From NCBI GenBank assembly GCA_963783385.1, contig CAWANJ010000009.1, forward strand, positions 800,001 to 864,000: DNA of 64,000 bases. Direction: 5' to 3'. The position numbers and the translations under genes were made by a program. Positions 8,120-29,136 of the stretch are shown here, in pieces. The notes below the pieces were generated by a model. It had not been told where the DNA came from. It ran no database searches and saw only the letters and a list, made by a program, of their open reading frames with translations. The first letter of the stretch is position 1. The number at the start of each line of letters is the position of its first letter. This DNA comes from an uncultured Gemmatimonadales bacterium (GTDB taxonomy: Bacteria > Gemmatimonadota > Gemmatimonadetes > Palauibacterales > Palauibacteraceae).

Positions 8120-8385
8120 GGCCCTGACGGCGCGGGATCGCCGGGGCGCCGGTCGTGCGCCCCGGCCTCCCTCAACACCTCGGTCACTTCACGCCCCTCG
8201 ACCGCGACCTTCCGGTGGAGGTCCCAGACGAGCCACGTCCGGGCGTCGTTCAGATGCGCCTGGAGCTGCGCCTGGTTCTCCTCGTCCCGGAGGGCCGGGT
8301 CGGCGGCCAGGCGCTCGAGCTCCCCGATCCAGTCCGTGATCTCGTCGGCGGGGCTGAACCGCCCCACCGGCGGCTGCAGGTTCAC
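8086..8385 (-). CDS. Small hypothetical protein
   Basis: GTG overlaps the TGA of the upstream M1 peptidase (GTGA); helical, protein-like composition. Confidence 0.4.
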
Positions 8386-10502
8386 GACCCGCCCGTCCAG
8401 CGGTCGTTGTCCGGCCGCACGTCGGGCAGCCGGTGGTCCGGGTCGAGGGCCACCGAGACCAGGGGCCGCGTGGAGGCGTAGCGGAAGGTGTACGTCCCGC
8501 CGGTCTCCCAGATCTCGACCGGCAGCCGCACCGTGCCGGTCGCCCCTCCCTCCTGCTCCACCCGGACCGTGGTCGGCATCGGCAGTCGGCCCAGGTTGGC
8601 GATCGTGATCAGCGAGCCCTTCGAGGGGTCCCCGTCCACGTAAGCGATTTTCCGCACCGCCTGGTCCAGGCGCCAGTCCCGCAGGAACCACCCCTTCCAG
8701 AACCAGCCCAGGTCCTCCCCGGCCACGTCGTCGATGGTGCGGAAGAAGTCGGCGGGCTGCGGGTGCCTGTAGGCCCACCGGCGGATGTACGCTCGGAAGG
8801 CCCGGTCGAAGCGGTCGGGGCCCAGGATGTACTCCCGCAGCAGTACGAGGCCCAGCGCCGGCTTGTAGTAGGAGACAGGGTGGCGGTAGGCGCCCGCGAC
8901 CGCGTCCGCCCTCGAGTCGATGGGCGGGGCGTTCGGATCGAGGAGGAGCGGTACGATCTCGCGGGCCGGGTCGCCTCCCTTCGGGGCGTACTCCCCGTCG
9001 CGCTTGGGCGCATACTCGCCCCCGTTGAACGCGTCCGAGGCGTAGATGTCGATGAAGGTGTTGAATCCCTCGTCCATCCAGGCGTGACGGCGCTCGTCCG
9101 ATCCGACGACCATCGGGAACCACTCGTGCCCGAATTCGTGCGCGGTGACGCCCCACAGCCCCTTCCCCCTGGCCCGCGCGCTGCAGAACACGATGCCCGG
9201 GTACTCCATGCCGCCCACCGGGCCACCCACGTTGACGGCGGTGGGATAGGGATAGGGATACCAGTGCTTGGAGAAGATCTGGATGGCCCCCTTCGTATAC
9301 TCCGTGGACCGCCCCCAGGCCGAGTCCCCCGCCGCCTCCTGCGGGTAGGCCGACATGGCCAGGGCGTGCCGCCCGCCGGGCAGGTCGATGCGGGCCGCAT
9401 CCCAGATGAAGGCCGGGGAGGCCGCGAACGCCACGTCGCGGGTATGGTCCATGTGGAAGTGCCACGTCAGCGGCCCGCTCCCGGAGGGTCGCGTGGCGGG
9501 CTGCCCGACCTCGCTCGCGCTCCGGATGAACACGGTCCTTTCGCTGCCGCGGGCCTCTTCCAGCCGCTGGCGCTGCCGTGCCGTGAGGACTCCGTCCGGG
9601 TTCAGCAGGCGGCCGGAGCCCACCACCAGGTAGCTCCTCGGTACCTGGACCGAGTAGTCGATGTCGCCGTAGTCCAGGTAGAACTCGCCCGTGCCCAGGA
9701 AGGGCAGCGTGTTCCACCCGCGCACGTCATCGTACACGGCCATGCGCGGGTACCACTGCGCCAGGTCGAACAGGGGGCCCGCCTTCGTGTCCATCCAGCC
9801 CGTCCGGCCCCGCCCCCCGGCCGGGATCACGAACGAGTAACCGATCTCGATCTGCACCCGGCCTCCGCCCGGGGCGAGGGCCCGCGCCAGCGGAACCTGC
9901 ATGCGCGTTCCCACGATGTGCACGTCCGGATGCTCGCGGCGGTCGCCCTGGACGACCACGACCGAATCGATGCGGTAGCCCTCCGCGTCCGGGCCGGGAG
10001 CCGGCTGGTCCGCCGTGCCCTCGCCGGGGACCAGCGCCCCACCCCGGGCGCCCGCCGCGCGCTCCGAGCGGGAGCCCGGCCGCCGGATGTTCTGGTCGAG
10101 CTGCAGCCACACGAAGCCCAGCGAGTCGGGGCTGGCGTTCGTGTAGGTGATCATCTCGTGGCCCGCGAGCCGGTGCGCGTCCGGCTCGAGGCGGGCCTCG
10201 ATGCGATAATCCGCCCTGTTGGACCAGTAGGAGGGACCGGGGGCGCCGTTCGCGCTGCGGGTCGGCGTGGAGGGAGAGGAGAGGAAGCCGTTGTCGAACG
10301 CGGCGTGCGCGTCGTAGGGCCCGATGGTCGCCGTCGTGTCCGCTTCGGTCACCTCCCCCCGGCCCGAGACCCCGCCCGGCTCCGCAACGGCTCCGCGCGG
10401 CATCGCGAGCGACGCGATCCCGACCAGGAGCGGCAGGGCCCGGAGCCGCCCCCGTGGCCCGGCGGCGAAGGGGCGGCGAACGGATTCGAGTGTGGACTGC
10501 AT
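8382..10502 (-). CDS. M1 family zinc aminopeptidase
   Basis: Signal peptide; [24 protein letters not shown] motifs. Confidence 0.9.
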
Positions 10503-10809
10503 GGCTGTCGTCTCCCGGCTGCGGCTCCGACCACCGGCGCCCCGCGCGTCGGCTCGCCGAAGCTAGGGCGCCGACACCGCCCGGCCAAGCGGGGGTGGCC
10601 CCGGCGCCGCGGACTCACCCGGTAATCAATGCGCACGCGCCACACATCGGGGGGCGCTCCGCGACGACCCTCCGCGTAGCGATCGGGGCAATGTCTTGCT
10701 CACCAAGGAGCTACGGAAGCGGAGCTCGGCCAGGATCCGGGCACGACGCTTGACCTGTCGGGGAGGCGGCATGTGCGAACGCCCCACGGGCCAAACCGGG
10801 AGGCACAGG

Positions 10810-11046: not shown

Positions 11047-11463
11047 TCAGCGAATGAGCAGCACGGGGGTCTGGGCCAGGATCGCGACTTTGTGGCTGAG
11101 GGTGCCCAGGTTGCGGGTGGGTTCGTCCAGGTCCTGGCGGTGGGAGCTGAGCACGATGAGGTCAATGTCCTGCTCGGCCGCGTACTCCACGATCCCCCGG
11201 GCCCGCTCCCCGTACACCACCTGCTGGCGGTGCTCAAGTCCCGCTTCCTGCAGCGGCCGGCTCATGGCCTCCATCGCCGTTGCGGCCCGCGCCTCGAGCT
11301 CCCCGTAGAAGTCCTCGAGCTCCTCGAACGGCAGATCGAGGGGCTCGATCACGTGGATGAGCGTCACCAGGGCCCCACCCCACTCGGCCAGCTCGCGCGC
11401 CCATTCCACGGCGCGACGGTTCTTGTCGGTCAGGTCCACCGGAACCAGGATGCGCTGGAACAT
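11047..11463 (-). CDS. Universal stress protein
   Basis: MFQRILVPVD, IDLIVLSSH, LGTLSHKV..LAQTPVLLIR. Confidence 0.9.
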   Translation of the reverse strand: MFQRILVPVDLTDKNRRAVEWARELAEWGGALVTLIHVIEPLDLPFEELEDFYGELEARAATAMEAMSRPLQEAGLEHRQQVVYGERARGIVEYAAEQDIDLIVLSSHRQDLDEPTRNLGTLSHKVAILAQTPVLLIR

Positions 11464-11466
11464 CGG

Positions 11467-11703
11467 TCAGCGGACCTGGCCGCTCGGCGACGTTCGGTCC
11501 CCTCCGGACGTGTCGACGCCCAGCAGAGCGTAGGCGGGGCAGAAGCGCAGGACCCCCGTCAGGAGCAGGACGCCTCCTACGATCCAGGCGGCGACGGCCC
11601 ATCCCGACCTCGCCACTCCGAACAGCGCCGCGGCCACGAACACGAGCCCGATCACGACGCGGAAGGTGGCGTCTCCGCGGCCCACGTTGCTGCTGGTCGA
11701 CAT
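11467..11703 (-). CDS. DUF2892 (YgaP-like) membrane protein
   Basis: NVG..D...R, two TM segments, FCPAYALLG. Confidence 0.85.
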   Translation of the reverse strand: MSTSSNVGRGDATFRVVIGLVFVAAALFGVARSGWAVAAWIVGGVLLLTGVLRFCPAYALLGVDTSGGDRTSPSGQVR

Positions 11704-11827
11704 GTCGGCCTCCTCTGAGGATACGGGGCCAATGTCGAGCCGGGCCGGCATCGGCGCTGTCGGGAGGTTCCACTGCCGTCCGGTGGGAGGCTCGCGGAGG
11801 CCGGTGTAGGGAATCTCCCGCGCCACG

Positions 11828-12655
11828 TCACGTCTCGGAGCGGCCGGTGAGGTACAGGCGCAGCTTGCCGAGCGCCGTGTCCGACGTGAGCTCGACCACC
11901 GTACGCGCCGCATCGTCGGTCACGTACACGCGCGCCTTGCGCCCGGGCCCGAACAGGCCCGTCCCGGGGATGACGACCGACAGGGCGACGACCGGGAAGG
12001 TCCCGGCCGGCGTGCGCAGGCTCTTCCGTCCGAGGACGCGTATGTGGACGGGATTGTCCGTGGCCTGGAAGAACCGCGGGATCCGGTAGTCGCCACCCGG
12101 CGCGAGCCGGAGGGTGCGGGGAAGGAAGAGGACGCCGAGCTCGTCCAGCGGGTCCGCCGGCATGACGCCGCTCGGACGCTCCTCGGGAGCCTCGCTGGGG
12201 GGCGAGCCGGGCAGCGGCGTGATCCGGTAGTGCCCGTCCGCGCCGTGCAGCTCGATGCGCAGGGCCTCGGTGTCCGGGCCTTCGTGCAGCCGTCGGTCGG
12301 AGCGGATCGTGTGCAGGGGGCCGGGAGCGATCCAGCTCACCAGGCTGTCGTCCAGGGTCAGGAACAGCGCTCCGCCGGTGACCTTGAGGGCGACCCGGTA
12401 GGCCTCGACGTTCTCGATCGGCTCGGTGTCCTCGACCGTCAGCACGGCGTGGCCCGCGTGGATGGGGCCCAGGGAGAGGCCGTACTCGAGCCGCTCGCCG
12501 GTGCGGAGGAGCGAGCCGTTCGCGAGGTCCCGCGCCGGCGCCGCCTTCGAAGGCCCGGCGGCCACGCCCCGGTGTCGCGGTGCGGCGGAGACGAGAGTCA
12601 GGGCTCCTGCGAGAACGATCGCGGTCCGCCGGTACGACCCGGGCCAGTCCCCCAT
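11828..12655 (-). CDS. DUF3108 domain protein
   Basis: GERLEY, TPAGTF and YVTDD..R..V motifs; signal-like N-terminus; start uncertain. Confidence 0.75.
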   Translation of the reverse strand: MGDWPGSYRRTAIVLAGALTLVSAAPRHRGVAAGPSKAAPARDLANGSLLRTGERLEYGLSLGPIHAGHAVLTVEDTEPIENVEAYRVALKVTGGALFLTLDDSLVSWIAPGPLHTIRSDRRLHEGPDTEALRIELHGADGHYRITPLPGSPPSEAPEERPSGVMPADPLDELGVLFLPRTLRLAPGGDYRIPRFFQATDNPVHIRVLGRKSLRTPAGTFPVVALSVVIPGTGLFGPGRKARVYVTDDAARTVVELTSDTALGKLRLYLTGRSET

Positions 12656-12840
12656 TCGGCACGCCTCCTCGACAACGGGTCCGTGCGCCGCACCCACGGT
12701 GGCACACACTTCGCTGCCATACACCCCCGGGGTGCGGATGGCTCCCGCAGGTCCCGAACGGCCCCGAGGATCCCGCCAACGCGGGGCGCTCGTGTCGCCC
12801 GGCGTGGGCCCCCGGGATGCCCCAGGAAGGAGGGACACGC

Positions 12841-13224
12841 ATGAACGTCCTCGTCGTGTTGGAGCCGGATCCGGACGCCGGCGCCGCAGACGATGCGCTG
12901 GCGCCGCTCGACTGGGTCCTCCAGCGAGCCCGGCGGGCCTCGGACCGGATCACCGTCCTGCTGGTCGGCCTGACCACGGGAGCGCCGGCCGAGGCCCTCG
13001 AGGAGCGCGCCACTGGCCGGCTGGGCTCCTGGCAGGGCATCGGGCACGTGCGACGCCTGCCCGGGGAGCCGCGCCGCGAGATCCTGCGCGTGCTCGGCCA
13101 CGAGCCCTGGGACGAGCTCGTCGTCTCCGGAGGGACGCGCACCCCGGCGGGCAAGCTCCGGCCGGGCGGTCTGGCCGAGTACCTCCTGCTCAACGCCCCC
13201 GTGACCCTGACCCTCGTCCGGTGA
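12841..13224 (+). CDS. Universal stress protein-like
   Basis: RBS GGAGGG before ATG 12841; GGTRTPAGKLRPGGLAEYLLLNAPVTLTLVR is a USP-type C-terminus. Confidence 0.75.
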   Translation: MNVLVVLEPDPDAGAADDALAPLDWVLQRARRASDRITVLLVGLTTGAPAEALEERATGRLGSWQGIGHVRRLPGEPRREILRVLGHEPWDELVVSGGTRTPAGKLRPGGLAEYLLLNAPVTLTLVR

Positions 13225-13727
13225 GTGCGGTGAGCTCGGCGCCCGAGATCCTCCCGCTCCCCCCGTTCGGGCTCCGGGACGCGCTCGGGCGGCCCGTCCT
13301 CATGCGGCCCGCCGGGGAGGACGTGGACGCGCTGGTGGCCTTCTACGAGCGCTTCGATCCGGCCGATCGCGCCCAGGGGCTGCCCCCCACCGGGTCCGCA
13401 CGGATCCGGCCGTGGCTCGAGGTGCTCGCCGAGGGGCCCGGCGTCGTTGCGTGGCACGAGGACGACGCCGTCGGTCACGCGGCCCTCGTCCCCGACGGTG
13501 CGGGAGCGCACGAGCTCGTGGTGTTCGTGCTGCAGGGCTTCCGGGGCACGGGCATCGGCACCTCTCTCGTGCGAGCCCTCCTCGGGTTGGGGCGGGCGCG
13601 CGGCGTGATCCGCGTATGGCTCACGGTCCAGCGCTGGAACCACGCCGCCATCGCGGTCTACCGCAAGACGGGCTTCGAACGAGAGGGCGAGGAGGGGCTC
13701 GAGATCATCATGTCGCGCTCCCTCTGA
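13221..13727 (+). CDS. GNAT family N-acetyltransferase
   Basis: GTG overlapping the USP stop; FVLQGFRGTGIG acetyl-CoA motif; NHAAIAVYRKTGF. Confidence 0.85.
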   Translation: MSAVSSAPEILPLPPFGLRDALGRPVLMRPAGEDVDALVAFYERFDPADRAQGLPPTGSARIRPWLEVLAEGPGVVAWHEDDAVGHAALVPDGAGAHELVVFVLQGFRGTGIGTSLVRALLGLGRARGVIRVWLTVQRWNHAAIAVYRKTGFEREGEEGLEIIMSRSL

Positions 13728-13812
13728 CGTCCGGCGACGAGGACGGATCCCCGTGAACCGCCCGGTGCCGCGCACGCTCACCCTTCCCTATCGTCACACG
13801 CAGCCGGGCTAA

Positions 13813-14037: not shown

Positions 14038-14123
14038 GCCGGTCAGGTCTCGGAATCGGGACGACGGCGACCCCGTCGGTCCCGCAGCGGAGCGACACTT
14101 CCCGACAGGGGTGAATCGGGCGC

Positions 14124-15197
14124 ATGGCGAGCTCGCCCCAACGCGTAGCGCTGGAGATCAATCCCGCCTCGCGCTTCGACGTCATCGACGTCGCGGCGCT
14201 CGTGCGAGCGCGGGACGAGGACTTCTTCCGGGCCTTTCCCCTCAGCCTGTGGTGCTCGATGCACACCACCGCGGGCTACCTGGAGCAGCGGCTGTGTGCG
14301 CGCCTCGGCAACAGCGAGCGTCGCGTGGGCAGGCTCGTGGGGCTGTTCCGTCGCCTGTTCCCGCACGACGCGGGCTATCACCACGACCAGCTCGAGCTCC
14401 GAGACGAGCTGACCGAGGCCGAGCGCGCGCAGGAGCCGGTCAACGCGGACTCGCACCTCACCTTCATGAGTGCGGGCCTCACCAACTGCGTGACCTACCG
14501 CCACGAGCCCGCCTCGCCGATCTACTTCATCGACCTGGACGGCGTGAACGAGCACTTCCGCCGGGTGCGCCGCACGACGGTGGTGGGCTACCGCGAGGAG
14601 ACGGAGGTGTACCGGGGCACCGTCGCCATCCCGGCCACCGCCGAGCACCCGGTCGACTCCTTCAACCTCAAGGCGCCGGGCTTCGGTCTGTATCAGCACA
14701 TCGAGGAAGTGCTGGCCGAGCGCGGCGTGCGGACGGGTCGGGTCGACCTCCGGCTGGCGCCCTCGGAGCAGCACGCCGGCCTCACGGTGAACGAGGCGGA
14801 GACGCTGCTCATGCGCAACGACCTCCCGGAAGCTCTGCGCGACCCGCTGCGCTACGTGCTGCGGCACGGCCGCCGTCTGCTGCGGCACCCCGCCACGATT
14901 CCGGGCAAGACACGCGAGTACGCCGTGTACGATCTCGTCCATCTCTACAACGAGGTCATGGACGTGCTCGGCGTGGGCCGCGCCGTGGCCGACCGGATCC
15001 TGTCGCGCCTCGCCGCTCCCGCGTGGAGGCTGTTCCGGCTCAAGCGGCAGGTGAGCTTTCCTGTGATCGACGGCGCCGGCGGGGACGCGCCCGGCCGGAT
15101 CATCCAGGGCCGCTACCAGAGCCCCATCCTCATCCAGCACCGCCCGGCGGAGGGCGGAGTCCGGCGCCTCGAGGTGGCCGTGTGGCGCTTCGAGTAG
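14124..15197 (+). CDS. Tandem YjbQ/UPF0047-like domain protein
   Basis: First half MHTTAG..NADSHL..IYFIDLDG; second half HAGLTVNE..DL..QGRYQS. Confidence 0.65.
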   Translation: MASSPQRVALEINPASRFDVIDVAALVRARDEDFFRAFPLSLWCSMHTTAGYLEQRLCARLGNSERRVGRLVGLFRRLFPHDAGYHHDQLELRDELTEAERAQEPVNADSHLTFMSAGLTNCVTYRHEPASPIYFIDLDGVNEHFRRVRRTTVVGYREETEVYRGTVAIPATAEHPVDSFNLKAPGFGLYQHIEEVLAERGVRTGRVDLRLAPSEQHAGLTVNEAETLLMRNDLPEALRDPLRYVLRHGRRLLRHPATIPGKTREYAVYDLVHLYNEVMDVLGVGRAVADRILSRLAAPAWRLFRLKRQVSFPVIDGAGGDAPGRIIQGRYQSPILIQHRPAEGGVRRLEVAVWRFE

Positions 15198-15386
15198 GCG
15201 CGACGTCCACGTCGCCGGAAAATCCCTGAGGAACCTCCTTCCCCCGTCCCGAGAGCGCACGCCGCCGTGCCGGCGGCCCTCCTCCCCGGCGGCCGCTTGA
15301 ACTCCGGACGTGCCTTCCGCAGACTGCCGGGCCAGGGTGCCCCGCGGCCCGCTCGGGGACACCGCGACCCGTGCAGACGGACCCCC

Positions 15387-16859
15387 ATGTCGGACGCCGA
15401 AGCGCTGATCGACCGTATCCGCCGGCTCGAGCGCGAAGCCCGGCCGCTCGAGCCCGGCGCCGCGGACCGGCGTGCCATCCGGGACGCGGTCGTGCAGCAC
15501 GCCGAGGCGTTCCTCGAGCGGCTGCCCGAGGCTCCGGCCTTCGAGGTGCGCGCGGACGCGGCGCGGGCGCTGGCGCGCCGCGTCCCGTCCGAGGGCCCCG
15601 CACCGCTCGACGAGCTCCTGGCGCTGTTCCGGTCGGCGGTGGAGGACACGGGCCTCAAGCCGTCTTCGCCCGGCCACCTCGCCTACATTCCGGGTGGCGG
15701 CCTGTACGCGTCCTCCCTGGGGGACTACCTGGCGGCGGTGACCGACGAGTACGCGGGCATCCGGTTCGCGGGCCCGGGGGCGGTCGAGATGGAGAACGTG
15801 CTCCTGCGCTGGATGGCCGGCCTGGTGGGCTACCCGGAGGACGCCGCCGGCAACCTGACCTCGGGGGGCAGCATCGCCAACCTGGTGGCCGTGGTGGCGG
15901 CGCGGGAGGCCCACGGGCTCCGGGCCGCCGATGTCCCCGGCGCGGTCGTGTATCTCACGGACCAGGCCCATCACTCCCTGGACAAGGCGCTGCGGATCGC
16001 CGGCCTGGGCGAGGCGCCGCGCCGTCGCATCGCCACGGACGAGCGGCAGCGCATGGACCCGGACGCGCTCCAGCACTCGATCGACCGGGATCGCGCCGCC
16101 GGTCTGAGGCCGTGGCTCGTGCTCGCCTCCGCCGGCACGACGGACGTGGGGGCGATCGATCCGCTGGAGGCGATCGGCCGGGTGGCCCGCTCCCGGGGGC
16201 TGTGGTATCACGTGGACGCGGCCTACGGCGGGTTTTTCGCGTTGTGCCCCGAGGTGCGGGGGCGGCTGCAGGGCATCGAGGCATCGGACTCGGTCGTGAT
16301 GGATCCCCACAAGGGGCTGTTCCTCCCCTACGGCCTCGGCGCCGTCCTGGTGAAGGACCGGGCCGCCCTGCACCGCGCGCACCGCTACAGCGCCGACTAC
16401 ATGCAGGATGCCGTGGATCCCGGAGCCGAGGTGCCCGACTCCCCCGCCGAGCTCTCGCCCGAGCTCACCAAGCACTTCCGGGGCCCCCGGCTGTGGCTGC
16501 CCCTCCTCCTGTACGGCGTGGGTCCGTTCCGGGCGTGCCTCGAGGAGAAGCTCCTGCTGGCGCGCTACTTCCACGAGCGCGTGCGAGACCTGGGGTTCGA
16601 GGTCGGCCCCGAGCCTCAGCTGAGCGTGGCCACCTTCCGCTGGGTCCCGGCCTCCGGGGACCCGGACGCCTTCAACCGGGCGCTGGTGCGCGCCATCCAC
16701 GAAGACGGCCGGGTGTTTCTTTCGTCTACACGTGTAGACGGTCGCTTCGTTCTGCGCCTGGCGGCGCTGACCTTCCGCACGCACCTGGACACGATCGACC
16801 TGTCGCTGCGGATCCTCGCGGAGAAGGTGGCGGAGCTCGAGGGGGAAGCCGGAGCCTGA
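15387..16859 (+). CDS. Group II PLP-dependent amino acid decarboxylase
   Basis: SGGSIAN, AHHSLDKA, AGTTDVGAIDP, HVDAAYGG, DPHK (PLP lysine). Confidence 0.9.
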   Translation: MSDAEALIDRIRRLEREARPLEPGAADRRAIRDAVVQHAEAFLERLPEAPAFEVRADAARALARRVPSEGPAPLDELLALFRSAVEDTGLKPSSPGHLAYIPGGGLYASSLGDYLAAVTDEYAGIRFAGPGAVEMENVLLRWMAGLVGYPEDAAGNLTSGGSIANLVAVVAAREAHGLRAADVPGAVVYLTDQAHHSLDKALRIAGLGEAPRRRIATDERQRMDPDALQHSIDRDRAAGLRPWLVLASAGTTDVGAIDPLEAIGRVARSRGLWYHVDAAYGGFFALCPEVRGRLQGIEASDSVVMDPHKGLFLPYGLGAVLVKDRAALHRAHRYSADYMQDAVDPGAEVPDSPAELSPELTKHFRGPRLWLPLLLYGVGPFRACLEEKLLLARYFHERVRDLGFEVGPEPQLSVATFRWVPASGDPDAFNRALVRAIHEDGRVFLSSTRVDGRFVLRLAALTFRTHLDTIDLSLRILAEKVAELEGEAGA

Positions 16860-16883
16860 GCTCCGGCTTCGAGCCTCCGGCGA

Positions 16884-17780
16884 TCAGCGCCCCTCGAAGC
16901 GGGCGTCCCGCTTCTCGAAGAACGCCGCCAGCCCCTCGGAGAAGTTGGGCTCGTCCGCGATGCGCGCGAGCTCCTCGAGCTCGCGGTCCAGGTGGTAATC
17001 CAGCCGGTCCACGCCGTCGGCCTGGTGGATGAGCGCCTTGGCCACCGCGTAGGCGCGGGTGGGCCCGGCGGCGAGGCGTTCCGCCACCCCATCCACGCGC
17101 CCCTCGCACTCCGCGTCGGGGAACACATCCGTGAGGAGCCCCGCCTCGAGCGCCTGTCGGGCGCCGAGTCGGGGGTTCAGGAGGACCAGCTCGAGCGCCT
17201 TCCGGAGTCCGACCAGCCGCGGAAGGAAGAAGGTCGAGCTCTCGGCGCCCGTCAGGCCGGTCTTGGGATACGCCCACTCGAAGGTGGACCGCTCGGACGC
17301 GAACACCAGGTCGCACGACATCGCGAGCCCGAAGCCTCCGGCCGCGGCCACGCCGTCCACGGCGGCCACGAACGGCTTGGGAGCCCGCTTGATCTCCGAG
17401 ATGGTGCTGTGCAGGTACTCGAGGATCTCCTTGAAGCTCTCGCCGTAGCCGGACGCGGGGCCGTGTCCGTCGGGCTGCAGGTAGCCGAAGTCCCGCTCCT
17501 CCCCGCGCTGCCGCACGTACTTGAGGTCGGCGCCGCTGCAGAACACGCCGTTCGTGCCGCGGAGGACCACGCAGCGGACCTCCTCGTCCCGGGCCATCTG
17601 CAGCCCGGCCTTCCGGAGGTCGCGGGCGGTCTCCACGTCCAGCGAGTTGAAGCGCTCCGGCCGGTGGATCGTGATGACGCCCACCGCGCCCCGGCGTTCC
17701 ACCCGGATCGGCCCCTGGGGCTGCGCCTCGCCCGCCGGCCGCTCCTTCGCGGGCGCCGAACCGACCTCCCCCGGGCTCAC
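16884..17780 (-). CDS. Enoyl-CoA hydratase/isomerase (crotonase) family protein; candidate HypX C-terminal half
   Basis: FCSGADL, KPFVAAVDGVAAAGG, LPRLVG; GTG start overlaps the formyltransferase stop. Confidence 0.85.
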   Translation of the reverse strand: MSPGEVGSAPAKERPAGEAQPQGPIRVERRGAVGVITIHRPERFNSLDVETARDLRKAGLQMARDEEVRCVVLRGTNGVFCSGADLKYVRQRGEERDFGYLQPDGHGPASGYGESFKEILEYLHSTISEIKRAPKPFVAAVDGVAAAGGFGLAMSCDLVFASERSTFEWAYPKTGLTGAESSTFFLPRLVGLRKALELVLLNPRLGARQALEAGLLTDVFPDAECEGRVDGVAERLAAGPTRAYAVAKALIHQADGVDRLDYHLDRELEELARIADEPNFSEGLAAFFEKRDARFEGR

Positions 17781-18688
17781 CGGACCGCGACCCCGGTTGC
17801 GCTCCCCAGGATGGACGCGATCCACGCCTCCGTGACCACCGGAGCCCGGCCCGCGGCGTCGGTGTCGGCGAGCGACGCCGGGCCGGGGCGACCGTCCACG
17901 ACGAAACCATCGTCGGCGAGCTCGACCGCGCCGCGCGCGAACAGCTCGGCGGCGCGCACCATCATGGGACCCCAGGCCGTCTCCATCATCCAGCCCCTGT
18001 GCGCGTACGCATACGCCCGAACCACGTCCTCGGCGCCCCGGTGCGCCACTTCGGCCACCAGCGAGTGCACCGGATAGGGGCCGCTCACCAGGAGCGGGGG
18101 CCCGGCATCCAGCTCCTCCGTCGCCAGGTGGAGCGTGGTGCGGGTCTCGGGCTCCCCGGCCAGGATGGCGTCCCTGGTGGCGTGGAGGCCGTGGTAGCGC
18201 GGTCGCCCCGCCGCGTCGCGTAGTCGGAGGTCGGCGTCGTGCACGTTGAGGATCCTCCCCGCGAACGCCTCGAGGAGCACCGGGCTCGCCACGAGGAGGT
18301 AGCCGCACAGGAGGACCAGGTCGGGCCGGAAGGGCTCCAGGATCGCCAGGGTCGCCCGGTCGTACGCCGGCCGCGCCGACCGGTCACCCACCGACGTGCC
18401 GCGCCCCGCGCAGAACTCCGCCACGTCGTGGACGCTCACCGGCACTCCGGCGCCCACCGCGATCTCGAGTCCGCGGCAGCCCCGGTGGCTGGCCACCACC
18501 GTCACCACCTCGAAGCCGGTGTCAAGCTCCATCGACGCGCGCAGGAGGTCCCCCAGCCCCGGGGTCCGATGCGAAGTGAGGACCGCCACCCGCAGGCGCC
18601 GCGGACGAGGCTCGCCCCACGTTCGCCCGCCACCCGACTGCACCCGACGCCGCACCGCCGCCCGCAGCGTCCCCATCGCGAAGCTCAT
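17777..18688 (-). CDS. N10-formyl-THF-dependent formyltransferase (PurN-like); candidate HypX N-terminal half
   Basis: RBS AGGAGG; PDLVLLCGY, NVHDADL, GLHATRDAILAG, ELDAGP. Confidence 0.85.
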   Translation of the reverse strand: MSFAMGTLRAAVRRRVQSGGGRTWGEPRPRRLRVAVLTSHRTPGLGDLLRASMELDTGFEVVTVVASHRGCRGLEIAVGAGVPVSVHDVAEFCAGRGTSVGDRSARPAYDRATLAILEPFRPDLVLLCGYLLVASPVLLEAFAGRILNVHDADLRLRDAAGRPRYHGLHATRDAILAGEPETRTTLHLATEELDAGPPLLVSGPYPVHSLVAEVAHRGAEDVVRAYAYAHRGWMMETAWGPMMVRAAELFARGAVELADDGFVVDGRPGPASLADTDAAGRAPVVTEAWIASILGSATGVAVR

Positions 18689-18705
18689 CTATGCCTCCTG
18701 TCCGA

Positions 18706-19797
18706 TCAGCAGATCCGTGGAAGTGGCTCACCGACCGGCTCCGTGAGGAGCCGGCGTCCGAGGCCCGTGTCGAGGACCACCCGCCCGGGGTGGTCGGCGG
18801 CACAGATACCGATCACGGCGGCGTCGCGGCCCAGGGGATGGGCGCGCAGGGCCGCCAGCACGTCCTCCACCCGCTCGGGCCGGACGCCCATGAGCGCCTT
18901 GCCCTCGTTGGCGATGTGGAAGGGGTCCAGGCCCAGCATCTCCGCGGCCGCTCGCACCGAGTGGCGGACGGGCACCACCGGCTCATCGATCACGATGCTG
19001 ACGCGACTCTTGTCCGCCATCTCGTGGAGCGCGCTCGCCACCCCGCCCCGGGTCGGGTCCTTGAGGGCCACCACCTCGGCCCCGCCGGCCTGGAGCGCCG
19101 CGCGCACCAGCCCGTTGATCGGAGCGACGTCGGAGAGGAGCTCCTCGTCGAACTCCAGCTCGTGGCGCCGCGCCATGAGCGAGATCCCGTGGTCCCCCAC
19201 GGTGCCGGTGACCACGATGCGGTCCCCGGGCTGCAGGCCCGCATCGATCACCACCCTCGACGTGATCGCGACCCCCGCGGTGTTGAGGACGAGACCATCC
19301 ACCTCGCCCCGGGGCATGACCTTGGTGTCGCCGGTGATCACGGTCGTGCCCGCCTCGCGGCAGGTCTCGAGCATGGAGAGCTGGATCGCCTCGAGCTCCG
19401 TTCGGCGGAATCCCTCCTCGACGACCACGGCGCAGGTGAGGCCCAGGGGCTCCGTGGCCCCCATCATGGCCAGGTCGTTGACCGTGCCGGCCACGGCCAG
19501 GCGACCGATGTCGCCCCCGGGGAAGCGGATGGGGTGGACCACGTGGGAGTCGGTGGTCACCACCAGCCAGCGCCCGTCCGGCAGGGGAAGCGCCGCCCCG
19601 TCGTCCATCTGGGCGAGCCCGATGCCCTCCATGGGCGTCTCGGCGTAGCCCGCCGCCAGCGTCTCCTCGATGAGGAGGCGCATGGGCACGCCGCCCGCGC
19701 CGTGCTTGAGGGTCACGAGCTCGTCGGGCCGGGCCGACCTCCGGGACGTCGGCCGGGGGATCGTGGTGCCGCTCGCCTGCTGCTCCATGGGAGTCAC
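18706..19797 (-). CDS. hypE: Hydrogenase maturation carbamoyl dehydratase HypE
   Basis: HGAGG, TTDSHVV, FPGGDIG, GDTKV, DPTRGG, ANEG, C-terminal PRIC. Confidence 0.96.
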   Translation of the reverse strand: MTPMEQQASGTTIPRPTSRRSARPDELVTLKHGAGGVPMRLLIEETLAAGYAETPMEGIGLAQMDDGAALPLPDGRWLVVTTDSHVVHPIRFPGGDIGRLAVAGTVNDLAMMGATEPLGLTCAVVVEEGFRRTELEAIQLSMLETCREAGTTVITGDTKVMPRGEVDGLVLNTAGVAITSRVVIDAGLQPGDRIVVTGTVGDHGISLMARRHELEFDEELLSDVAPINGLVRAALQAGGAEVVALKDPTRGGVASALHEMADKSRVSIVIDEPVVPVRHSVRAAAEMLGLDPFHIANEGKALMGVRPERVEDVLAALRAHPLGRDAAVIGICAADHPGRVVLDTGLGRRLLTEPVGEPLPRIC

Positions 19798-19801
19798 CGT
19801 C

Positions 19802-20965
19802 TCACAGGTCCGGGTGTCCGCCGTACTGGTGCCAGATCCGGCACGTACCCTCCGTGCTCACCATGCAGGCGCCCACCGGCGCGTCGGGAGCGCATTCTTT
19901 ACCGAACAGGGGGCAGTCCACGGGCGAGGCGATGCCGGCCATGATGTCTCCGCAGATGCACACCTGGGTGAGCTGCGAAGGAGCATAGTCCCACAACCGC
20001 CGCACGTCGATGTCGAAGCGCCGCCTCGCGTCCACGTGCGCGAACTCGTCGCGAAGGCGGAGGTTGCCGTTGGGAACGTGTGCGATGCCGCGCCACCGTC
20101 CGCCCGTGGTCCGGAACACGCGCCACAGCTGGTCCTGGGCGTTTCGGTTCCCCTCGCGGGTCACGCAGCGGGGGAAGGTGTTCACGACCCGGGGCGTGCC
20201 GTCCCGGATGAGCTCGGTGAGCGTCAGGAGCCCCGCCAAAATGTCCAGCGGCTCGAAGCCCGCCACCACCACGGGAAGGCCGTGGCGCTCCACGAAGCGC
20301 TCGAAGATCGCCCAGCCGGTGATCGTGGCGGCGTGGCCGGCGGCCAGGAAGCCCTCGACGCGGGCGCCCGGCATCTCGGCCACGATCTCCATGACCGGCG
20401 GGATGTACTTGTGCGCCGACAGCACCGAGAAGTTCGGGGGCGGGTCCCCCAGGACGACCGCGGCCGTGGCCACGGCCGTCGTCTCGAAGCCGCTGGCGAA
20501 GAACACGACCTCCTCGTCGGTGTCCCGCGCCAGCTCCGCAGCCTGCGTGGCGCTGTACACGACGTCCACATGGGCCCCCCTCGCCTGCGCATCGGAGAGC
20601 GACCCGGCCGAGCCCGGTACCTTGAGCATGTCCCCGTAGGAGGCGATCCTCACGCCGTCCTGCGCGAGGGCGACCGCCTCGTCCACTTCGGGCACGTCGG
20701 TCACGCACACGGGGCAGCCCGGCCCCATGATCACGTCCAGGCTCCGCGGGATCAGTGTCCTCAGGCCGAACTTCGCGATCGACTGCTCGTGGCTCCCGCA
20801 CACGTGCATCACCGAGACGGGCGCCCGGCCCACCTGGCCACACACACGGTCGATGGCGGCGGCCAGCGCCCGGGCCCGACCCGGATCCCGGAAACGAAGC
20901 TCGGCCGCCTCGCCCGCCAGCGCCGTGCCGGCGGCCGGGCTCCCGCCGTCCGACGACGCACTCAC
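19802..20965 (-). CDS. hypD: Hydrogenase maturation protein HypD
   Basis: CGSH, GPGCPVC, GFETT, C-terminal Cys cluster and GACMVS.EGTC. Confidence 0.96.
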   Translation of the reverse strand: MSASSDGGSPAAGTALAGEAAELRFRDPGRARALAAAIDRVCGQVGRAPVSVMHVCGSHEQSIAKFGLRTLIPRSLDVIMGPGCPVCVTDVPEVDEAVALAQDGVRIASYGDMLKVPGSAGSLSDAQARGAHVDVVYSATQAAELARDTDEEVVFFASGFETTAVATAAVVLGDPPPNFSVLSAHKYIPPVMEIVAEMPGARVEGFLAAGHAATITGWAIFERFVERHGLPVVVAGFEPLDILAGLLTLTELIRDGTPRVVNTFPRCVTREGNRNAQDQLWRVFRTTGGRWRGIAHVPNGNLRLRDEFAHVDARRRFDIDVRRLWDYAPSQLTQVCICGDIMAGIASPVDCPLFGKECAPDAPVGACMVSTEGTCRIWHQYGGHPDL

Positions 20966-21282
20966 AATCCCTCCTCCGCGGTCATCGCGCCCCCGAGTCC
21001 CACGCCGCGCCCCCGGGCCGCCTCGATCTCGCCCCGCACGTCGCCGGCCATCATGTCGTCGGCGGCCTCTTCGAGCAGCATCTCGTACAGGGCGAGCGTT
21101 TCGCCGATCTCCTCGGCCGGGATCTTCCGGATCGCGAAGCCCACGTGGTTGAGGATGTAGTCGCCGGGCCCGACCGGCTCGTCGACCACGTCGAGCCGCG
21201 TCTCGCGGTGCACGCCGAAGAAATCCACGATGGCCACCTGGCCATCGACCTCCAGCACCTTTCCGGGCACTCCCAGACACAT
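20962..21282 (-). CDS. hypC: HypC/HybG/HupF hydrogenase chaperone
   Basis: MCLGVPG start; GDYILNHVGFAI. Confidence 0.95.
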   Translation of the reverse strand: MCLGVPGKVLEVDGQVAIVDFFGVHRETRLDVVDEPVGPGDYILNHVGFAIRKIPAEEIGETLALYEMLLEEAADDMMAGDVRGEIEAARGRGVGLGGAMTAEEGL

Positions 21283-25503: not shown

Positions 25504-27224
25504 CCCTGCACCTTCACGGTGGTGACCAGGTCTCCCTCGGCATCCAGGACGTGCACCCCGCAGGCCATGCAGGGGTCGAAGGAGTGGATGGTCCGCAGGA
25601 TCTCGATGGGCTGGTCCGGTTTGACCAGCGGGTGGTTGTCCACCAGCGAGGCCTCGTAAGGCCCCTTCTGGCCCTTCGCGTCCCGCGGCGAGCAGTTCCA
25701 GGTGCTCGGCACCACGCACTGGTAGCGGGAGATCTGGCCGTTGTGGATCTCGACCCAGTGGCCCAGGGCGCCGCGCGCCGCGTCCAGGTACCCGTAGCCG
25801 CGCGCCGTGGCGGGCCACGTGGACGGATCCCACTTCTGGTCGTTGAAGGTGGCCACGTCGCCGTTCTTGATGCGGGACACGAGGTCCCCGTACCAGTCCT
25901 CCATCTTGCGGGCTATGAGGACAGTCTCGATCGCTCGAGCCGCCGTACGACCCAGGGTCGAGAACAGCGCCGAGGGGCCCACCTGGAGCTTGCCCAGGGC
26001 TTCTCCGACCAGGCCCTTCACGCCCTCGTGGCCGGCCGCGTACGCCACCAGCATCCGCGCCAGCGGGCCCACCTCCATGGGCTTCCCGTCGTAGCGCGGG
26101 GCCTTCATCCAGGTGTACTTCTCCTGGTCCTGGATGAATGTCCAGGGGGGCTTGGGACCGGTGTAGTTGGGCACGGTCTGCCCTTCGTACGGATGGAGAC
26201 CCTCCTCCGGCGCGCCCTGGTACTCGTACCAGGAGTGCATGACCTCCTCGCGCACCTTGGCCTCGTCGTAGGGGACCACCTTCGTCAGGTCGTTGTCGAG
26301 GATGATCCCGCGCGGGAAGTAGAGGTGCTCGATGTCCCGGAAGTCGCTCCCCGCGGCCGGGAACATTCCCACCGCCAGGTAGTTGGGGACGCCGCCGCCG
26401 ATCGACGCCCAGTCCTTGTAGAAGCCGGCGATGGCCAGGAGGTCCGGCCAGTACACCTGCTCCACGAACACGCGGGCCTTGTCGATCAGCGCCTTGATGT
26501 CGCTCAGTCGCTCGGCGTTGATCGTCCCGGTGTCGTTCACGTTGATGGCCGACGCCATCCCGCCCACCAGGAAGTTGGGGTGCGGGTTCTTGCCGCCGAA
26601 GATCGTGTGCAGCCTGATCACGTCGCGCTGCCAGTCCAGCGCCTCCAGGTAGTGCGACACGGCGATCAGGTTCACCTCGGGCGGCAGCTTGTAGGCCGGG
26701 TGGCCCCAGTAGCCATTGGTGAAGATCCCGAGCTGCCCGGAGCTCACGAACTTCTGGAGCTTCTCCTGGACGGCCTTGAAGTAGGCCCCCGAGTTGTTGG
26801 GCCACGGGGACAGGCTGCGGGCGATCTGCCCGGCCCTGTCGGGATCGGCCTTCAGCGCGCTCACCACGTCGACCCAGTCGAGCGCGTGCAGGTGGTAGAA
26901 GTGGATGACGTGGTCCTGCACGGTCTGCATGCCGTGCACGAGGTTGCGGATGATCGTGGCGTTGGGCGGGATCGTGATGTCGAGCGCGTCCTCGACGGCC
27001 CGGCACGACGCGATGGCGTGCACCACGGTGCACACGCCGCAGATCCGCTGGGTGAAGGCCCAGGCATCGCGCGGATCGCGCCCGTTCATGATGATCTCGA
27101 TCCCGCGGAACTGCGTGGAGGATGCCCACGCGTCCGCGATCTTGCCGTTCTCGGCCTGCACCTCGATGCGCAGGTGGCCCTCGATCCGCGTGATCGGGTC
27201 GACGACGACCTTAGTCCTGGCCAT
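25500..27224 (-). CDS. hyaB: Group 1 [NiFe]-hydrogenase large subunit
   Basis: DPITRIEGH; L1 QRICGVCTVVH; L2 SFDPCMACGVH plus cleavable tail. Confidence 0.97.
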   Translation of the reverse strand: MARTKVVVDPITRIEGHLRIEVQAENGKIADAWASSTQFRGIEIIMNGRDPRDAWAFTQRICGVCTVVHAIASCRAVEDALDITIPPNATIIRNLVHGMQTVQDHVIHFYHLHALDWVDVVSALKADPDRAGQIARSLSPWPNNSGAYFKAVQEKLQKFVSSGQLGIFTNGYWGHPAYKLPPEVNLIAVSHYLEALDWQRDVIRLHTIFGGKNPHPNFLVGGMASAINVNDTGTINAERLSDIKALIDKARVFVEQVYWPDLLAIAGFYKDWASIGGGVPNYLAVGMFPAAGSDFRDIEHLYFPRGIILDNDLTKVVPYDEAKVREEVMHSWYEYQGAPEEGLHPYEGQTVPNYTGPKPPWTFIQDQEKYTWMKAPRYDGKPMEVGPLARMLVAYAAGHEGVKGLVGEALGKLQVGPSALFSTLGRTAARAIETVLIARKMEDWYGDLVSRIKNGDVATFNDQKWDPSTWPATARGYGYLDAARGALGHWVEIHNGQISRYQCVVPSTWNCSPRDAKGQKGPYEASLVDNHPLVKPDQPIEILRTIHSFDPCMACGVHVLDAEGDLVTTVKVQG

Positions 27225-28383
27225 GACGATCCTCCTCGTGGCTGGCAGAACCGCCGTCCGGCTCGCCGCCGCCCGAACCCGACGCGCCCTCCGTCCGATG
27301 CCGCATCCGGTTCACACCCGTAACGACCGCGTGCGCCGCCACGCCGGCCGTGGCCCCGACCGCGAGAGCGGCGCCGATCGTGTCGGCCGTGCTCTCGATG
27401 CCGAAGCCCGAGACCTTGGGCATCCGCTGGTAGAAGGGGGTCATGGTGTCCCAGAACATCCGCTCGGTGCAGCCCAGGCAGGGGTGCCCCGCCCCGATCG
27501 GCCAGCTCGTCTCGCCGTTCCACTGGAAGATCGGGCACGGTGAGAAGGTCGCCGGTCCCTTGCAGCCTACCTCGTACAGGCACCATGCCTTGCGCGCGGC
27601 CTCGTCGTCGAACGTCTTGACGAACTGGCCGGCGTCGAAGTTGGCGCGACGCGAGCACTGGTCGTGGATCCTGGCGCCGTAGGCGAACAGGGGCCGGTGG
27701 TCGTAGTCGACGTCCGGCAGCCGCCCGAAGGTCAGGTAGTGGACGACGGTGGCGGTGATCGTGTCGGCGATCGGTGGGCAGCCGGCGATGTTCACGACCG
27801 GCTTGTCCTTGACGATCTGGTCGACGCCCACCGCCCGGGTCGGGTTCGGGGCCGCGGCCTGTACGCTCCCGAAGTGCGCGCACGCCCCGACGGCCAGTAC
27901 GGCGGCGGCGCCGGCGGCGCCCTCCTCCAGGATGTCGCGCGCCGTGCGGCCGCCGATCATGGTGTAAATGCCGTCCTCGGCCAGGGGCACGGAGCCCGTC
28001 ACGATGAGCACGTACTCGCCGTGGTGGTCCTTCATCGCCTGCTGCAGCGCGCTCTCGGCCGCCGAGCCCGCCGCCGCCTGGAGGTTCTCCTGGTAGTCCA
28101 GGGAGATGAGGTCGAGGACGAGATCGCCGATCGTCGGATGGGACGTGCGGAGCGTGGACTCGGTGCACCCCGTGCACTCCTGCAGGGAGAGCCAGATCAC
28201 GCTCGGCCGCTGGAGCTGCTCCAGGGCCCTGGCGATCTTCGGCGTGAGCAGGCTGCTCAGGCCGAGCATGGCGCCCATCTCGCCGCAGAACTGGAGGAAG
28301 TCTCGGCGGCTGACGCCACGGCTGTGGAGATGCTCGCCGAGGGTCGCGCCGGGCTCCCAGGGATCGGTCAACGGAAAGTACAT
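27211..28383 (-). CDS. hyaA: Group 1 [NiFe]-hydrogenase small subunit (Tat-exported, membrane-anchored)
   Basis: SRRDFL Tat motif; ECTGC, GCPP, HDQC, GCKGP, GHPCLGC; C-terminal TM helix. Confidence 0.97.
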   Translation of the reverse strand: MYFPLTDPWEPGATLGEHLHSRGVSRRDFLQFCGEMGAMLGLSSLLTPKIARALEQLQRPSVIWLSLQECTGCTESTLRTSHPTIGDLVLDLISLDYQENLQAAAGSAAESALQQAMKDHHGEYVLIVTGSVPLAEDGIYTMIGGRTARDILEEGAAGAAAVLAVGACAHFGSVQAAAPNPTRAVGVDQIVKDKPVVNIAGCPPIADTITATVVHYLTFGRLPDVDYDHRPLFAYGARIHDQCSRRANFDAGQFVKTFDDEAARKAWCLYEVGCKGPATFSPCPIFQWNGETSWPIGAGHPCLGCTERMFWDTMTPFYQRMPKVSGFGIESTADTIGAALAVGATAGVAAHAVVTGVNRMRHRTEGASGSGGGEPDGGSASHEEDRHGQD

Positions 28384-28755: not shown

Positions 28756-29136
28756 GTGAGCGCACTCGAAGTGTCCGGCGATGCCACGTCCGTAAGGGAG
28801 ACTCCGCCCGCGGGAGCCCTGCAGCGCCTGCTGGAGGTCGAGCAGGAGGCGGAGGAGGCCCTCGTCCGGGCTCAGACCCAGGCGCGGGAGCTGGTGGCAG
28901 CGGCACGCGAACGAGCGCTCGCCTCGGAGGAGGAGGCGCGCCACGACGTGGCTCGCGCCGGCCAGCGGATCGAGCGGGAGATCCACGCCTGGCGTGACGA
29001 GCGACTGGCGGCCCTGCAGGCCCAATCGGAGGGCGCGGCGCGCGCCTACGAAGAGGCCGCCTCCGCGCGTATCGGAGAGCTCGCGCGCGTCGTGGTCGAC
29101 GAGATCCTCGCCTTCGACGAGGCCGGCCGGCCATGA
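28756..29136 (+). CDS. A/V-type ATP synthase peripheral stalk subunit H/G
   Basis: Coiled-coil EQEAEE..AR; first gene of the ATPase operon; ATGA overlap with subunit I. Confidence 0.7.
   Translation: MSALEVSGDATSVRETPPAGALQRLLEVEQEAEEALVRAQTQARELVAAARERALASEEEARHDVARAGQRIEREIHAWRDERLAALQAQSEGAARAYEEAASARIGELARVVVDEILAFDEAGRP

Follow-up and report, generated by a model that had tools for sequence, protein, structure and literature searches.

How is the carbon monoxide (CO) ligand of a [NiFe]-hydrogenase made in gene clusters that appear to lack hypX? HypX (HoxX) is the N10-formyl-tetrahydrofolate-dependent CO-ligand synthase of [NiFe]-hydrogenase maturation and acts via formyl-coenzyme A (formyl-CoA), and a 2025 review (PMC12134894) names, in the passages available, the source of the CO ligand outside HypX-bearing aerobes as a key open question. 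This question is raised by a stretch of 64,000 nucleotides (nt) of DNA from an uncultured Gemmatimonadales bacterium (contig CAWANJ010000009.1, positions 800,001 to 864,000; referred to here as the window), in which a 12-gene hydrogenase operon ends with the genes for a PurN-type formyltransferase (FT) and a hyp-linked crotonase-fold protein (ECH). We propose that these last two operon genes probably make the CO ligand of the hydrogenase. More specifically, we estimate a probability of roughly 55% that FT and ECH, as accessory maturation genes, together run the HypX reaction as two proteins, in which ECH would decarbonylate formyl-CoA to CO and FT would be an optional feeder. The sequence-only reading of the window had suggested that the pair may supply CO in hydrogenase clusters that appear to lack hypX; no canonical HypX was found in the window's genome. 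To our knowledge, HypX, a single fused protein, is so far the only enzyme known to make the CO ligand in this way; searches of the open literature in PubMed Central and bioRxiv returned no account of a two-gene or stand-alone form.

FT and ECH are the final two genes of the operon and are arranged relative to hypE as follows:

17777..18688, minus strand: FT, PurN-type formyltransferase, 303 amino acids (aa), PF00551 75.4 bits
16884..17780, minus strand: ECH, hyp-linked crotonase-fold protein, 298 aa, PF00378 158.1 bits
17777..17780, minus strand: GTGA, the ECH start codon GTG overlapping the FT stop codon TGA, translational coupling, read from the sequence
18694..18699, minus strand: AGGAGG ribosome-binding motif, 5 nt ahead of the FT ATG and within the 17-nt hypE-FT spacer, read from the sequence
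18706..19797, minus strand: hypE, TIGR02124 365.7 bits (cut-off 251.6)

The FT start codon is an ATG 17 nt past the hypE stop codon. From the ECH GTG to the conserved core (22 codons), the third position is G or C in 22/23 cases, which fits coding in the ECH frame from the GTG start; the G+C content of the window is ~73%. The coordinates and the GTGA overlap confirm on the minus strand what had been read from the window alone, i.e. that the pair lies directly after hypE and is translationally coupled.

To place this arrangement in a wider context, we scanned one genome per species using an alignment of the FT family, and counted neighbours by tblastn with the window proteins. The 80 FT loci obtained are mostly from Gemmatimonadota and Acidobacteriota metagenome-assembled genomes (MAGs); further loci are from a Nitrospiria MAG, one Deltaproteobacteria MAG, one Actinomycetes MAG and three haloarchaeal records. 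ECH lies directly downstream of FT on the same strand in 75/80 loci and is adjacent and divergent in two more, the haloarchaeal loci L031 and L084, where it is placed between hypE and FT and encoded on the other strand. At two loci (L014 and L053) the contig ends before ECH could appear, and at a single locus (L068) ECH is absent despite room for it. hypE is directly upstream of FT in 68/80 loci, directly downstream of ECH in 6/80 loci, in which hypD and hypE flank the pair, and elsewhere in the locus in 3/80 loci; it was not found in 3/80 loci, two of them at contig ends. Thus, ECH adjoins FT in 77/80 loci and hypE is adjacent to the pair in 74/80, so that the linkage of homologous pairs to hyp genes, on which the sequence-only reading turned, holds well beyond the window. 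Moreover, a 4-nt overlap between a start codon in frame with ECH and the FT stop codon is present in 42/75 same-strand loci (22 GTGA and 20 ATGA). The hypX gene of Cupriavidus necator pHG1 occupies the same place, after hypE. In total, we conclude that FT-ECH is a conserved module of hyp operons and that the two genes are not chance neighbours. Separately, L068 is a Halodesulfurarchaeum MAG contig on which the FT relative stands alone, with no ECH or hyp genes within 6 kb.

These observations bear directly on the reading that FT and ECH are ordinary metabolism genes placed after hypE by chance, with FT as a PurN paralog and ECH as an enoyl-CoA hydratase or isomerase. This reading has on its side that both proteins match general Pfam families and that the automatic JGI names for FT are 'phosphoribosylglycinamide formyltransferase', which is the PurN label that annotation pipelines had been expected to assign. 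However, the adjacency in 77/80 loci over several phyla and archaea, including the insertion between hypD and hypE, argues strongly against it, and so do the scores of FT and ECH below every curated NCBIfam cut-off, the absence of hydratase and PaaG catalytic residues from ECH (see below) and the presence of a separate PurN in the genome. We consider the ordinary-metabolism reading highly improbable and, by synteny, close to refuted.

We compared ECH with true hydratases (Escherichia coli PaaF, FadB, FadJ and CaiD together with paralogs from the window's own genome). Enoyl-CoA hydratase, the crotonase proper, has two catalytic Glu residues; in ECH, Gly151 and Tyr171 stand at these positions (GG.E and P-E motifs), and the claim that this crotonase lacks both hydratase glutamates is therefore correct. 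The HypX references were the C. necator pHG1 protein (WP_011153943.1, on NC_005241) and the Aquifex aeolicus structure 6J0P. In BLASTP, ECH is 30% identical to C. necator HypX over 193 aa (E 2e-12). In this alignment as well as in MAFFT, Tyr171 and Glu180 of ECH fall on Tyr439 and Glu449 of HypX (C. necator numbering), as the sequence-only reading had proposed; the loop reads FEWAYPKTG-LTGAESSTF in ECH and NPHYKNMGNLYGSEYWT in HypX. Members of the ECH family are 55-98% identical (38 aligned) and share the invariant loop FEWAY.KTGL(T/S)GAESSTF; Tyr171, Glu180, Gly151 and Glu168-Trp169-Ala170 are invariant in 73/73 ECH relatives of at least 250 aa. The Tyr/Glu pair is also kept in the 11/11 HypX sequences used. 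According to the available passages of PMC6802093, Tyr439/Glu449 of C. necator HypX correspond to Tyr416/Glu426 of the Aquifex protein, where they lie beside the CoA thiol, and mutating the Tyr/Glu residues in Ralstonia causes a HypX-minus phenotype.

The proteins closest to ECH in sequence and fold are PaaG-type crotonases (Thermus 3HRX/6SL9 and E. coli 4FZW chain C) and Geobacillus 2EJ5. These proteins match ECH in the PDB at 1e-34 to 3e-40, and an AlphaFold2 (AF2) model of ECH with a mean predicted local distance difference test (pLDDT) score of 86.2 matches them in Foldseek with E ~1e-21. PaaG is a 1,2-epoxyphenylacetyl-CoA isomerase. As a control for neighbouring families, we took the 150 best-matching representatives out of 1.84 billion proteins. 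In the PaaG-like neighbours, which are ~40% identical to ECH and many of which are uncharacterised, position 171 is mostly Tyr or Phe, position 179 is Asp and position 180 is Gly; ECH has Ala179-Glu180 in place of the PaaG Asp-Gly/Ser. In the HMMER alignment to Thermus PaaG and to the chain of its D136N mutant (6SLA), Ala179 aligns with the PaaG catalytic Asp136 and the Glu follows at +1. On these alignments, the change specific to the ECH family is the loss of the PaaG Asp together with a Glu one residue later, as in the Gly-(Ala/Ser)-Glu of HypX. This Gly-(Ala/Ser)-Glu arrangement was seen solely in hyp-linked ECH and in HypX, whereas the PaaG-like neighbours have Asp-Gly. Glu168-Trp169 and Lys173-Thr174 are likewise specific to the ECH family compared to PaaG-like proteins, and the CoA and oxyanion-hole motifs FCSGADL and AAAGG are invariant or nearly so. 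All NCBIfam matches of ECH are below cut-off; the best is 'oxepin-CoA hydrolase, alternative type', and the PaaG model TIGR02280 gives 157.6 bits (cut-off 345.15). Finally, the context of ECH is hyp genes and not paa genes as for PaaG.

FT is PurN-like in both sequence and fold. Asn148, His150 and Asp194 of FT align in HMMER with the N-I-H and L-D-G motifs of E. coli PurN, the catalytic triad of which is Asn106/His108/Asp144, and the folate-side motifs align as well. His150 and Asp194 are invariant in the FT family and Asn148 is conserved at 90% or more; thus, the formyltransferase His and Asp to which the sequence-only reading had pointed are present and conserved. A search of the PDB returned PurN (1e-16), and the AF2 model of FT (mean pLDDT 87.9) has PurN as its top Foldseek match (TMt 0.82-0.89), followed by PurU, with ArnA far lower. 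HypX is not among the Foldseek matches listed for the FT or the ECH model, and the fold does not discriminate. FT differs from PurN in an 8-residue insertion after His150, an N-terminal loop with the consensus S.RAPGL, a conserved helical extension at the C terminus (~residues 205-270), a C-terminal family motif AYAYAHREWMMR..WGPLL and its neighbourhood of hyp genes. The FT family is sharply bounded: 79 proteins score 128-661 bits, and true PurN proteins, which come next, do not exceed 74 bits. Against the PurN model TIGR00639, FT scores ~82.8-83.5 bits (cut-off 150.1), and a separate PurN is encoded in the same genome (C9:346863-347441; 170.4 bits, above cut-off). By contrast, the N-domain of HypX is described in the available passages of PMC6802093 as being of the Fmt/ArnA/FDH type, with a His74/Asp80/Asp109 network in Aquifex numbering, and HypX is likened there to ArnA-type transformylases. 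FT has the conserved His150 and Asp194; no counterpart of Asp80 was assigned, with Asp153 as a candidate. Because the alignment and the fold are PurN-like, FT lacks significant similarity to the N-domain of HypX and the genome has a separate PurN, FT appears to be a PurN-derived paralog with a new acceptor rather than one half of HypX.

Side by side, HypX and FT-ECH both consist of a formyltransferase-superfamily part followed by a crotonase-fold part directly after hypE; HypX and ECH have the Tyr and Glu in the same crotonase loop and have lost both hydratase Glu residues, and a His and an Asp at the site of formyl transfer are present in HypX and in FT. They differ in that HypX is one polypeptide and FT-ECH is two open reading frames (ORFs) with a stop codon and the GTGA overlap between them; in that the transferase parts belong to different types within the superfamily; and in that ECH is much closer to PaaG-like proteins and often occurs alone. 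For the two-protein reading, we infer the substrates of FT and ECH, the release of CO and its delivery to HypCD as follows. With its PurN-type residues Asn148/His150/Asp194, FT would transfer the formyl group of N10-formyl-tetrahydrofolate to the CoA thiol. ECH would hold the resulting formyl-CoA in the crotonase oxyanion hole, and its Tyr171 and Glu180 would split it into CO and CoA. The CO would then be passed to the iron on HypC-HypD, the genes for which are just upstream. FT would be an optional dedicated feeder, and in clusters without FT, general metabolism would have to supply the formyl-CoA.

If so, FT-ECH is a concrete, clonable candidate for the CO source in soil phyla and haloarchaea, with HypX being rare in the genomes sampled (0/301 and 2/201; see below). 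Because the HypX reaction would be divided over two separable proteins, each half-reaction could be assayed alone. Moreover, the assignment would correct a routine misannotation as PurN and enoyl-CoA hydratase, and could add small parts for the aerobic heterologous production of hydrogenases.

Several observations weigh against the two-protein reading. At the active site, the Tyr-to-Glu spacing in ECH is one residue shorter than in HypX. In addition, Tyr171 appears to be inherited, being common to most PaaG-like neighbours, and is not a HypX signature; as these neighbours mostly carry Tyr or Phe at this position, Tyr171 was ruled out as a hallmark of HypX. Thus, of the earlier claim that the loop is of the HypX type and not of the PaaG type, the part concerning Ala179-Glu180, which is specific, stands, and the part concerning the Tyr, which is not diagnostic, does not. 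Similarly, the similarity between FT and the N-domain of HypX is not significant (E 0.088). The phylogeny is also less favourable than it looks at first. Maximum-likelihood (ML) trees of 56 and 70 crotonases, in which HypX was represented by 9 betaproteobacterial sequences and, in the 70-crotonase tree, also by 2 acidobacterial ones, join hyp-linked ECH and HypX C-domains in one clade with an SH-aLRT support of 100. However, the stem of HypX in the tree is 5.7 changes per site, the approximately unbiased (AU) test does not reject the alternative in which ECH groups with PaaG-like proteins and HypX lies outside (delta lnL 3.31, p 0.425), and the ECH-HypX clade is gone once 29 active-site columns are removed. 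As judged from these trees, the data would fit deep homology and convergence of ECH and the HypX C-domain alike and, whichever the origin, the similarity between ECH and HypX appears to be concentrated at the catalytic site.

The same data bear on the narrower reading that the pair is a true split of HypX, i.e. that hypX was cut in two, or that HypX was fused from exactly these genes, with the halves orthologous to the HypX domains. As expected for such a split, the domain order and the place after hypE match those of hypX, and ECH groups with the HypX C-domain in the best ML trees (SH-aLRT 100); however, FT is PurN-like in sequence and fold, with no significant match to the HypX N-domain and ArnA-type proteins far lower, ECH is ~40% identical to PaaG-like proteins compared to 30% to HypX, and the clade that joins ECH with HypX hangs on the active-site columns and finds no backing in the AU test. 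Moreover, FT and ECH are in separate frames in 75/75 same-strand loci, and neither the 9 longer relatives nor the top 150 representatives included a genuine FT-ECH fusion. Altogether, we regard a true split as very unlikely. From the proposal of a non-fused, split HypX, we therefore retain the conserved hyp-linked pair, and not the split itself, since FT is of the PurN type (PurN 1e-16, HypX N-domain E 0.088).

Among the longer relatives, P0263, P0370 and P0373 were rejected as fusions, as pieces of FT and ECH are joined in them to out-of-frame stretches rich in Arg, Ala and Pro; P0368 was rejected because ECH stands behind an N-terminal out-of-frame stretch, and P0231 and P0278 show this type of artefact as chimeras of hypE and ECH. 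By their sequences, the long fusion candidates appear to be gene-call artefacts in high-GC contigs. The longer relatives also include tandem crotonases and FadB-like proteins. A predicted complex of FT and ECH gave an ipSAE of 0.00 in two runs without controls and counts neither way.

Next to these points stands the distribution of the two genes across genomes. We used a sample of 301 genomes of the window's phylum, which includes the unpublished genomes G157, G057, G097 and G182 in totals only; none of these four has FT or ECH. hypE was above cut-off in 116/301 genomes, hyp-type ECH (at least 414 bits) was present in 14/301 genomes and FT in 3/301 genomes. Full-length HypX was found in 0/301 genomes, and four weak matches cover the Fmt-like part only. 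hyp-type ECH adjoins hypE in 14/14 genomes. However, ECH occurs without FT in 11/14 ECH genomes and, therefore, the link to formyl-tetrahydrofolate is not general; likewise, neither ECH nor HypX was found in 102/116 hypE-positive genomes and, therefore, the module is not a general requirement. In a tree, ECH genes without FT (solo) and with it (paired) are intermixed, so that 8 state changes are needed, of which the starred branches force at least 2. Because ECH is beside hypE with or without FT, we conclude that ECH is the core part of the module and that FT is an add-on.

Two solo ECH loci, L127 (G034) and L135 (G044), have hypE-ECH gaps of ~558 nt and ~170 nt, respectively, compared to 10-30 nt elsewhere. 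No FT was detected by tblastn in these two gaps, which could possibly hold a decayed FT or a small gene.

To count the co-occurrence of the pair with HypX, we used 50 FT-bearing genomes, out of 60 loci listed, and canonical HypX was not found in 49/50 of them. In a sample of Acidobacteriota, HypX was found in 2/201 genomes, one of which is the MAG G342, and this genome has the FT-ECH pair plus a full-length canonical HypX. Moreover, because HypX is rare in these phyla, its absence beside the pair says little. For the same reason, mutual exclusion of the pair and HypX was dropped as an argument, HypX being too rare (0/301 and 2/201) for it to carry weight. In G342 (L063/L094/L101), the pair is in the hyp operon; its HypX scores 517 bits, and no hyp homolog was found within ~9 kb of the HypX gene.

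An alternative reading that accommodates several of these points is that the pair serves hydrogenase maturation by other chemistry. In this case, ECH would act on another thioester, e.g. by hydrolysing or decarboxylating an acyl-CoA other than formyl-CoA or a protein-bound intermediate, FT would formylate or deformylate another acceptor, and CO would not be the product. The linkage to hypCDE is equally strong under this alternative; moreover, ECH derives from PaaG-like isomerases or hydrolases, with 'oxepin-CoA hydrolase, alternative type' as its best, below cut-off NCBIfam match, ECH mostly occurs without FT, and the acceptor site of FT is unlike those of both PurN and HypX. Against this, the catalytic loop of ECH matches HypX at both residues that were shown to matter, and the HypX reaction is the only one known, as far as the available passages of PMC6802093 and PMC12134894 go, to join a formyl-tetrahydrofolate transferase and a CoA-binding crotonase beside hypE. 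We therefore consider other chemistry doubtful, though it is to be taken more seriously than a true split.

Taking the place of ECH at the core of the module further, we tentatively suggest, with somewhat less than even confidence, that the hyp-linked crotonase may be a second, independently evolved formyl-CoA decarbonylase. It would have arisen from PaaG-like isomerases by a one-position shift of the catalytic acid, would have converged on the HypX site, and would be the core of a HypX-independent CO route in Gemmatimonadota, Acidobacteriota, some Nitrospirota and haloarchaea; this route would repeatedly have acquired and lost, as an optional feeder, a formyl-CoA synthase derived from PurN.

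Which hydrogenase would receive the ligand? The closest solved structure to the large subunit is 3MYR, the membrane-bound enzyme of Allochromatium vinosum (752.5 bits), followed by Hyd-5 and Hyd-1. The small subunit is 46% identical to C. necator HoxK in BLASTP and has ECTGC in place of the ECTCC of this protein. The extra cysteine of ECTCC marks O2-tolerant membrane-bound enzymes. Its absence from the small subunit, although the operon has a cytochrome b and a HypX-like module, is a last point to be set against the two-protein reading: there is no sequence sign of the O2-tolerant type and, thus, no visible tie between this type and the module. A second [NiFe]-hydrogenase large subunit is encoded outside the window in the same genome (C9:442129-443268; L007:571-2055, minus strand) and is closest to structures of cytosolic sulfhydrogenase (group 3b-like; 214 bits). 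The hypE model has three matches in this genome; among those listed above cut-off, the window copy is the only one and, therefore, a second hyp set is not evident.

The window genes from 28383 to 16884 on the minus strand form a single unbroken run of [NiFe]-hydrogenase and hyp genes in the order small subunit, large subunit, cytochrome b, endopeptidase, hypA, hypB, hypF, hypC, hypD, hypE, FT and ECH. Upstream of hypE, the run contains the following features, followed by a repeat at its far end:

27211..28383, minus strand: hydrogenase small subunit, Tat-type leader, PF14720 and PF01058
25500..27224, minus strand: [NiFe]-hydrogenase large subunit, group 1 membrane-bound uptake type, PF00374 781 bits
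24730..25500, minus strand: b-type cytochrome subunit, PF01292 99.8 bits
24168..24776, minus strand: hydrogenase maturation endopeptidase, stop-to-stop coordinates, PF01750 92.1 bits
23248..24160, minus strand: hypA/hypB region, two Pfam matches
~24160-23891, minus strand: short HypA-like frame, PF01155 31.9 bits (cut-off 28.9)
24057-23248, minus strand: HypB-type GTPase, PF02492 74.9 bits
21284..23638, minus strand: hypF, TIGR00143 485.7 bits (cut-off 466.1)
20962..21282, minus strand: presumed hypC, 106 aa, N terminus MCLGVPGKV, from the translation
19802..20960, minus strand: hypD, start approximate, PF01924 410.2 bits and TIGR00075 381.1 bits
16845..16870, no strand: perfect 11-bp inverted repeat with a 4-nt loop, from sequence inspection

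The 106-aa ORF is taken by us to be hypC from its N-terminal motif. The arms of the inverted repeat, GAAGCCGGAGC and GCTCCGGCTTC, lie between the ECH stop codon (16884-16886) and the stop codon (16857-16859) of a convergent gene for a pyridoxal phosphate (PLP)-dependent decarboxylase (15267-16859), which together with the repeat closes the operon. The repeat at 16845-16870 may be a bidirectional transcript end. A scan of 16500-19000 for promoters and terminators gave no match; the terminator scan overlooks the inverted repeat because the repeat has no T-tract. Long high-GC ORFs on the minus strand, e.g. 14043-16784 and 11652-13781, have no Pfam match and are probably shadow frames. Other neighbours include a universal stress protein (11047-11466, minus strand) and an M1-family peptidase (8382-10562, minus strand). 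On the other side, a V-type ATPase subunit-I-like gene (28998-31046, plus strand) is divergent from the hydrogenase operon.

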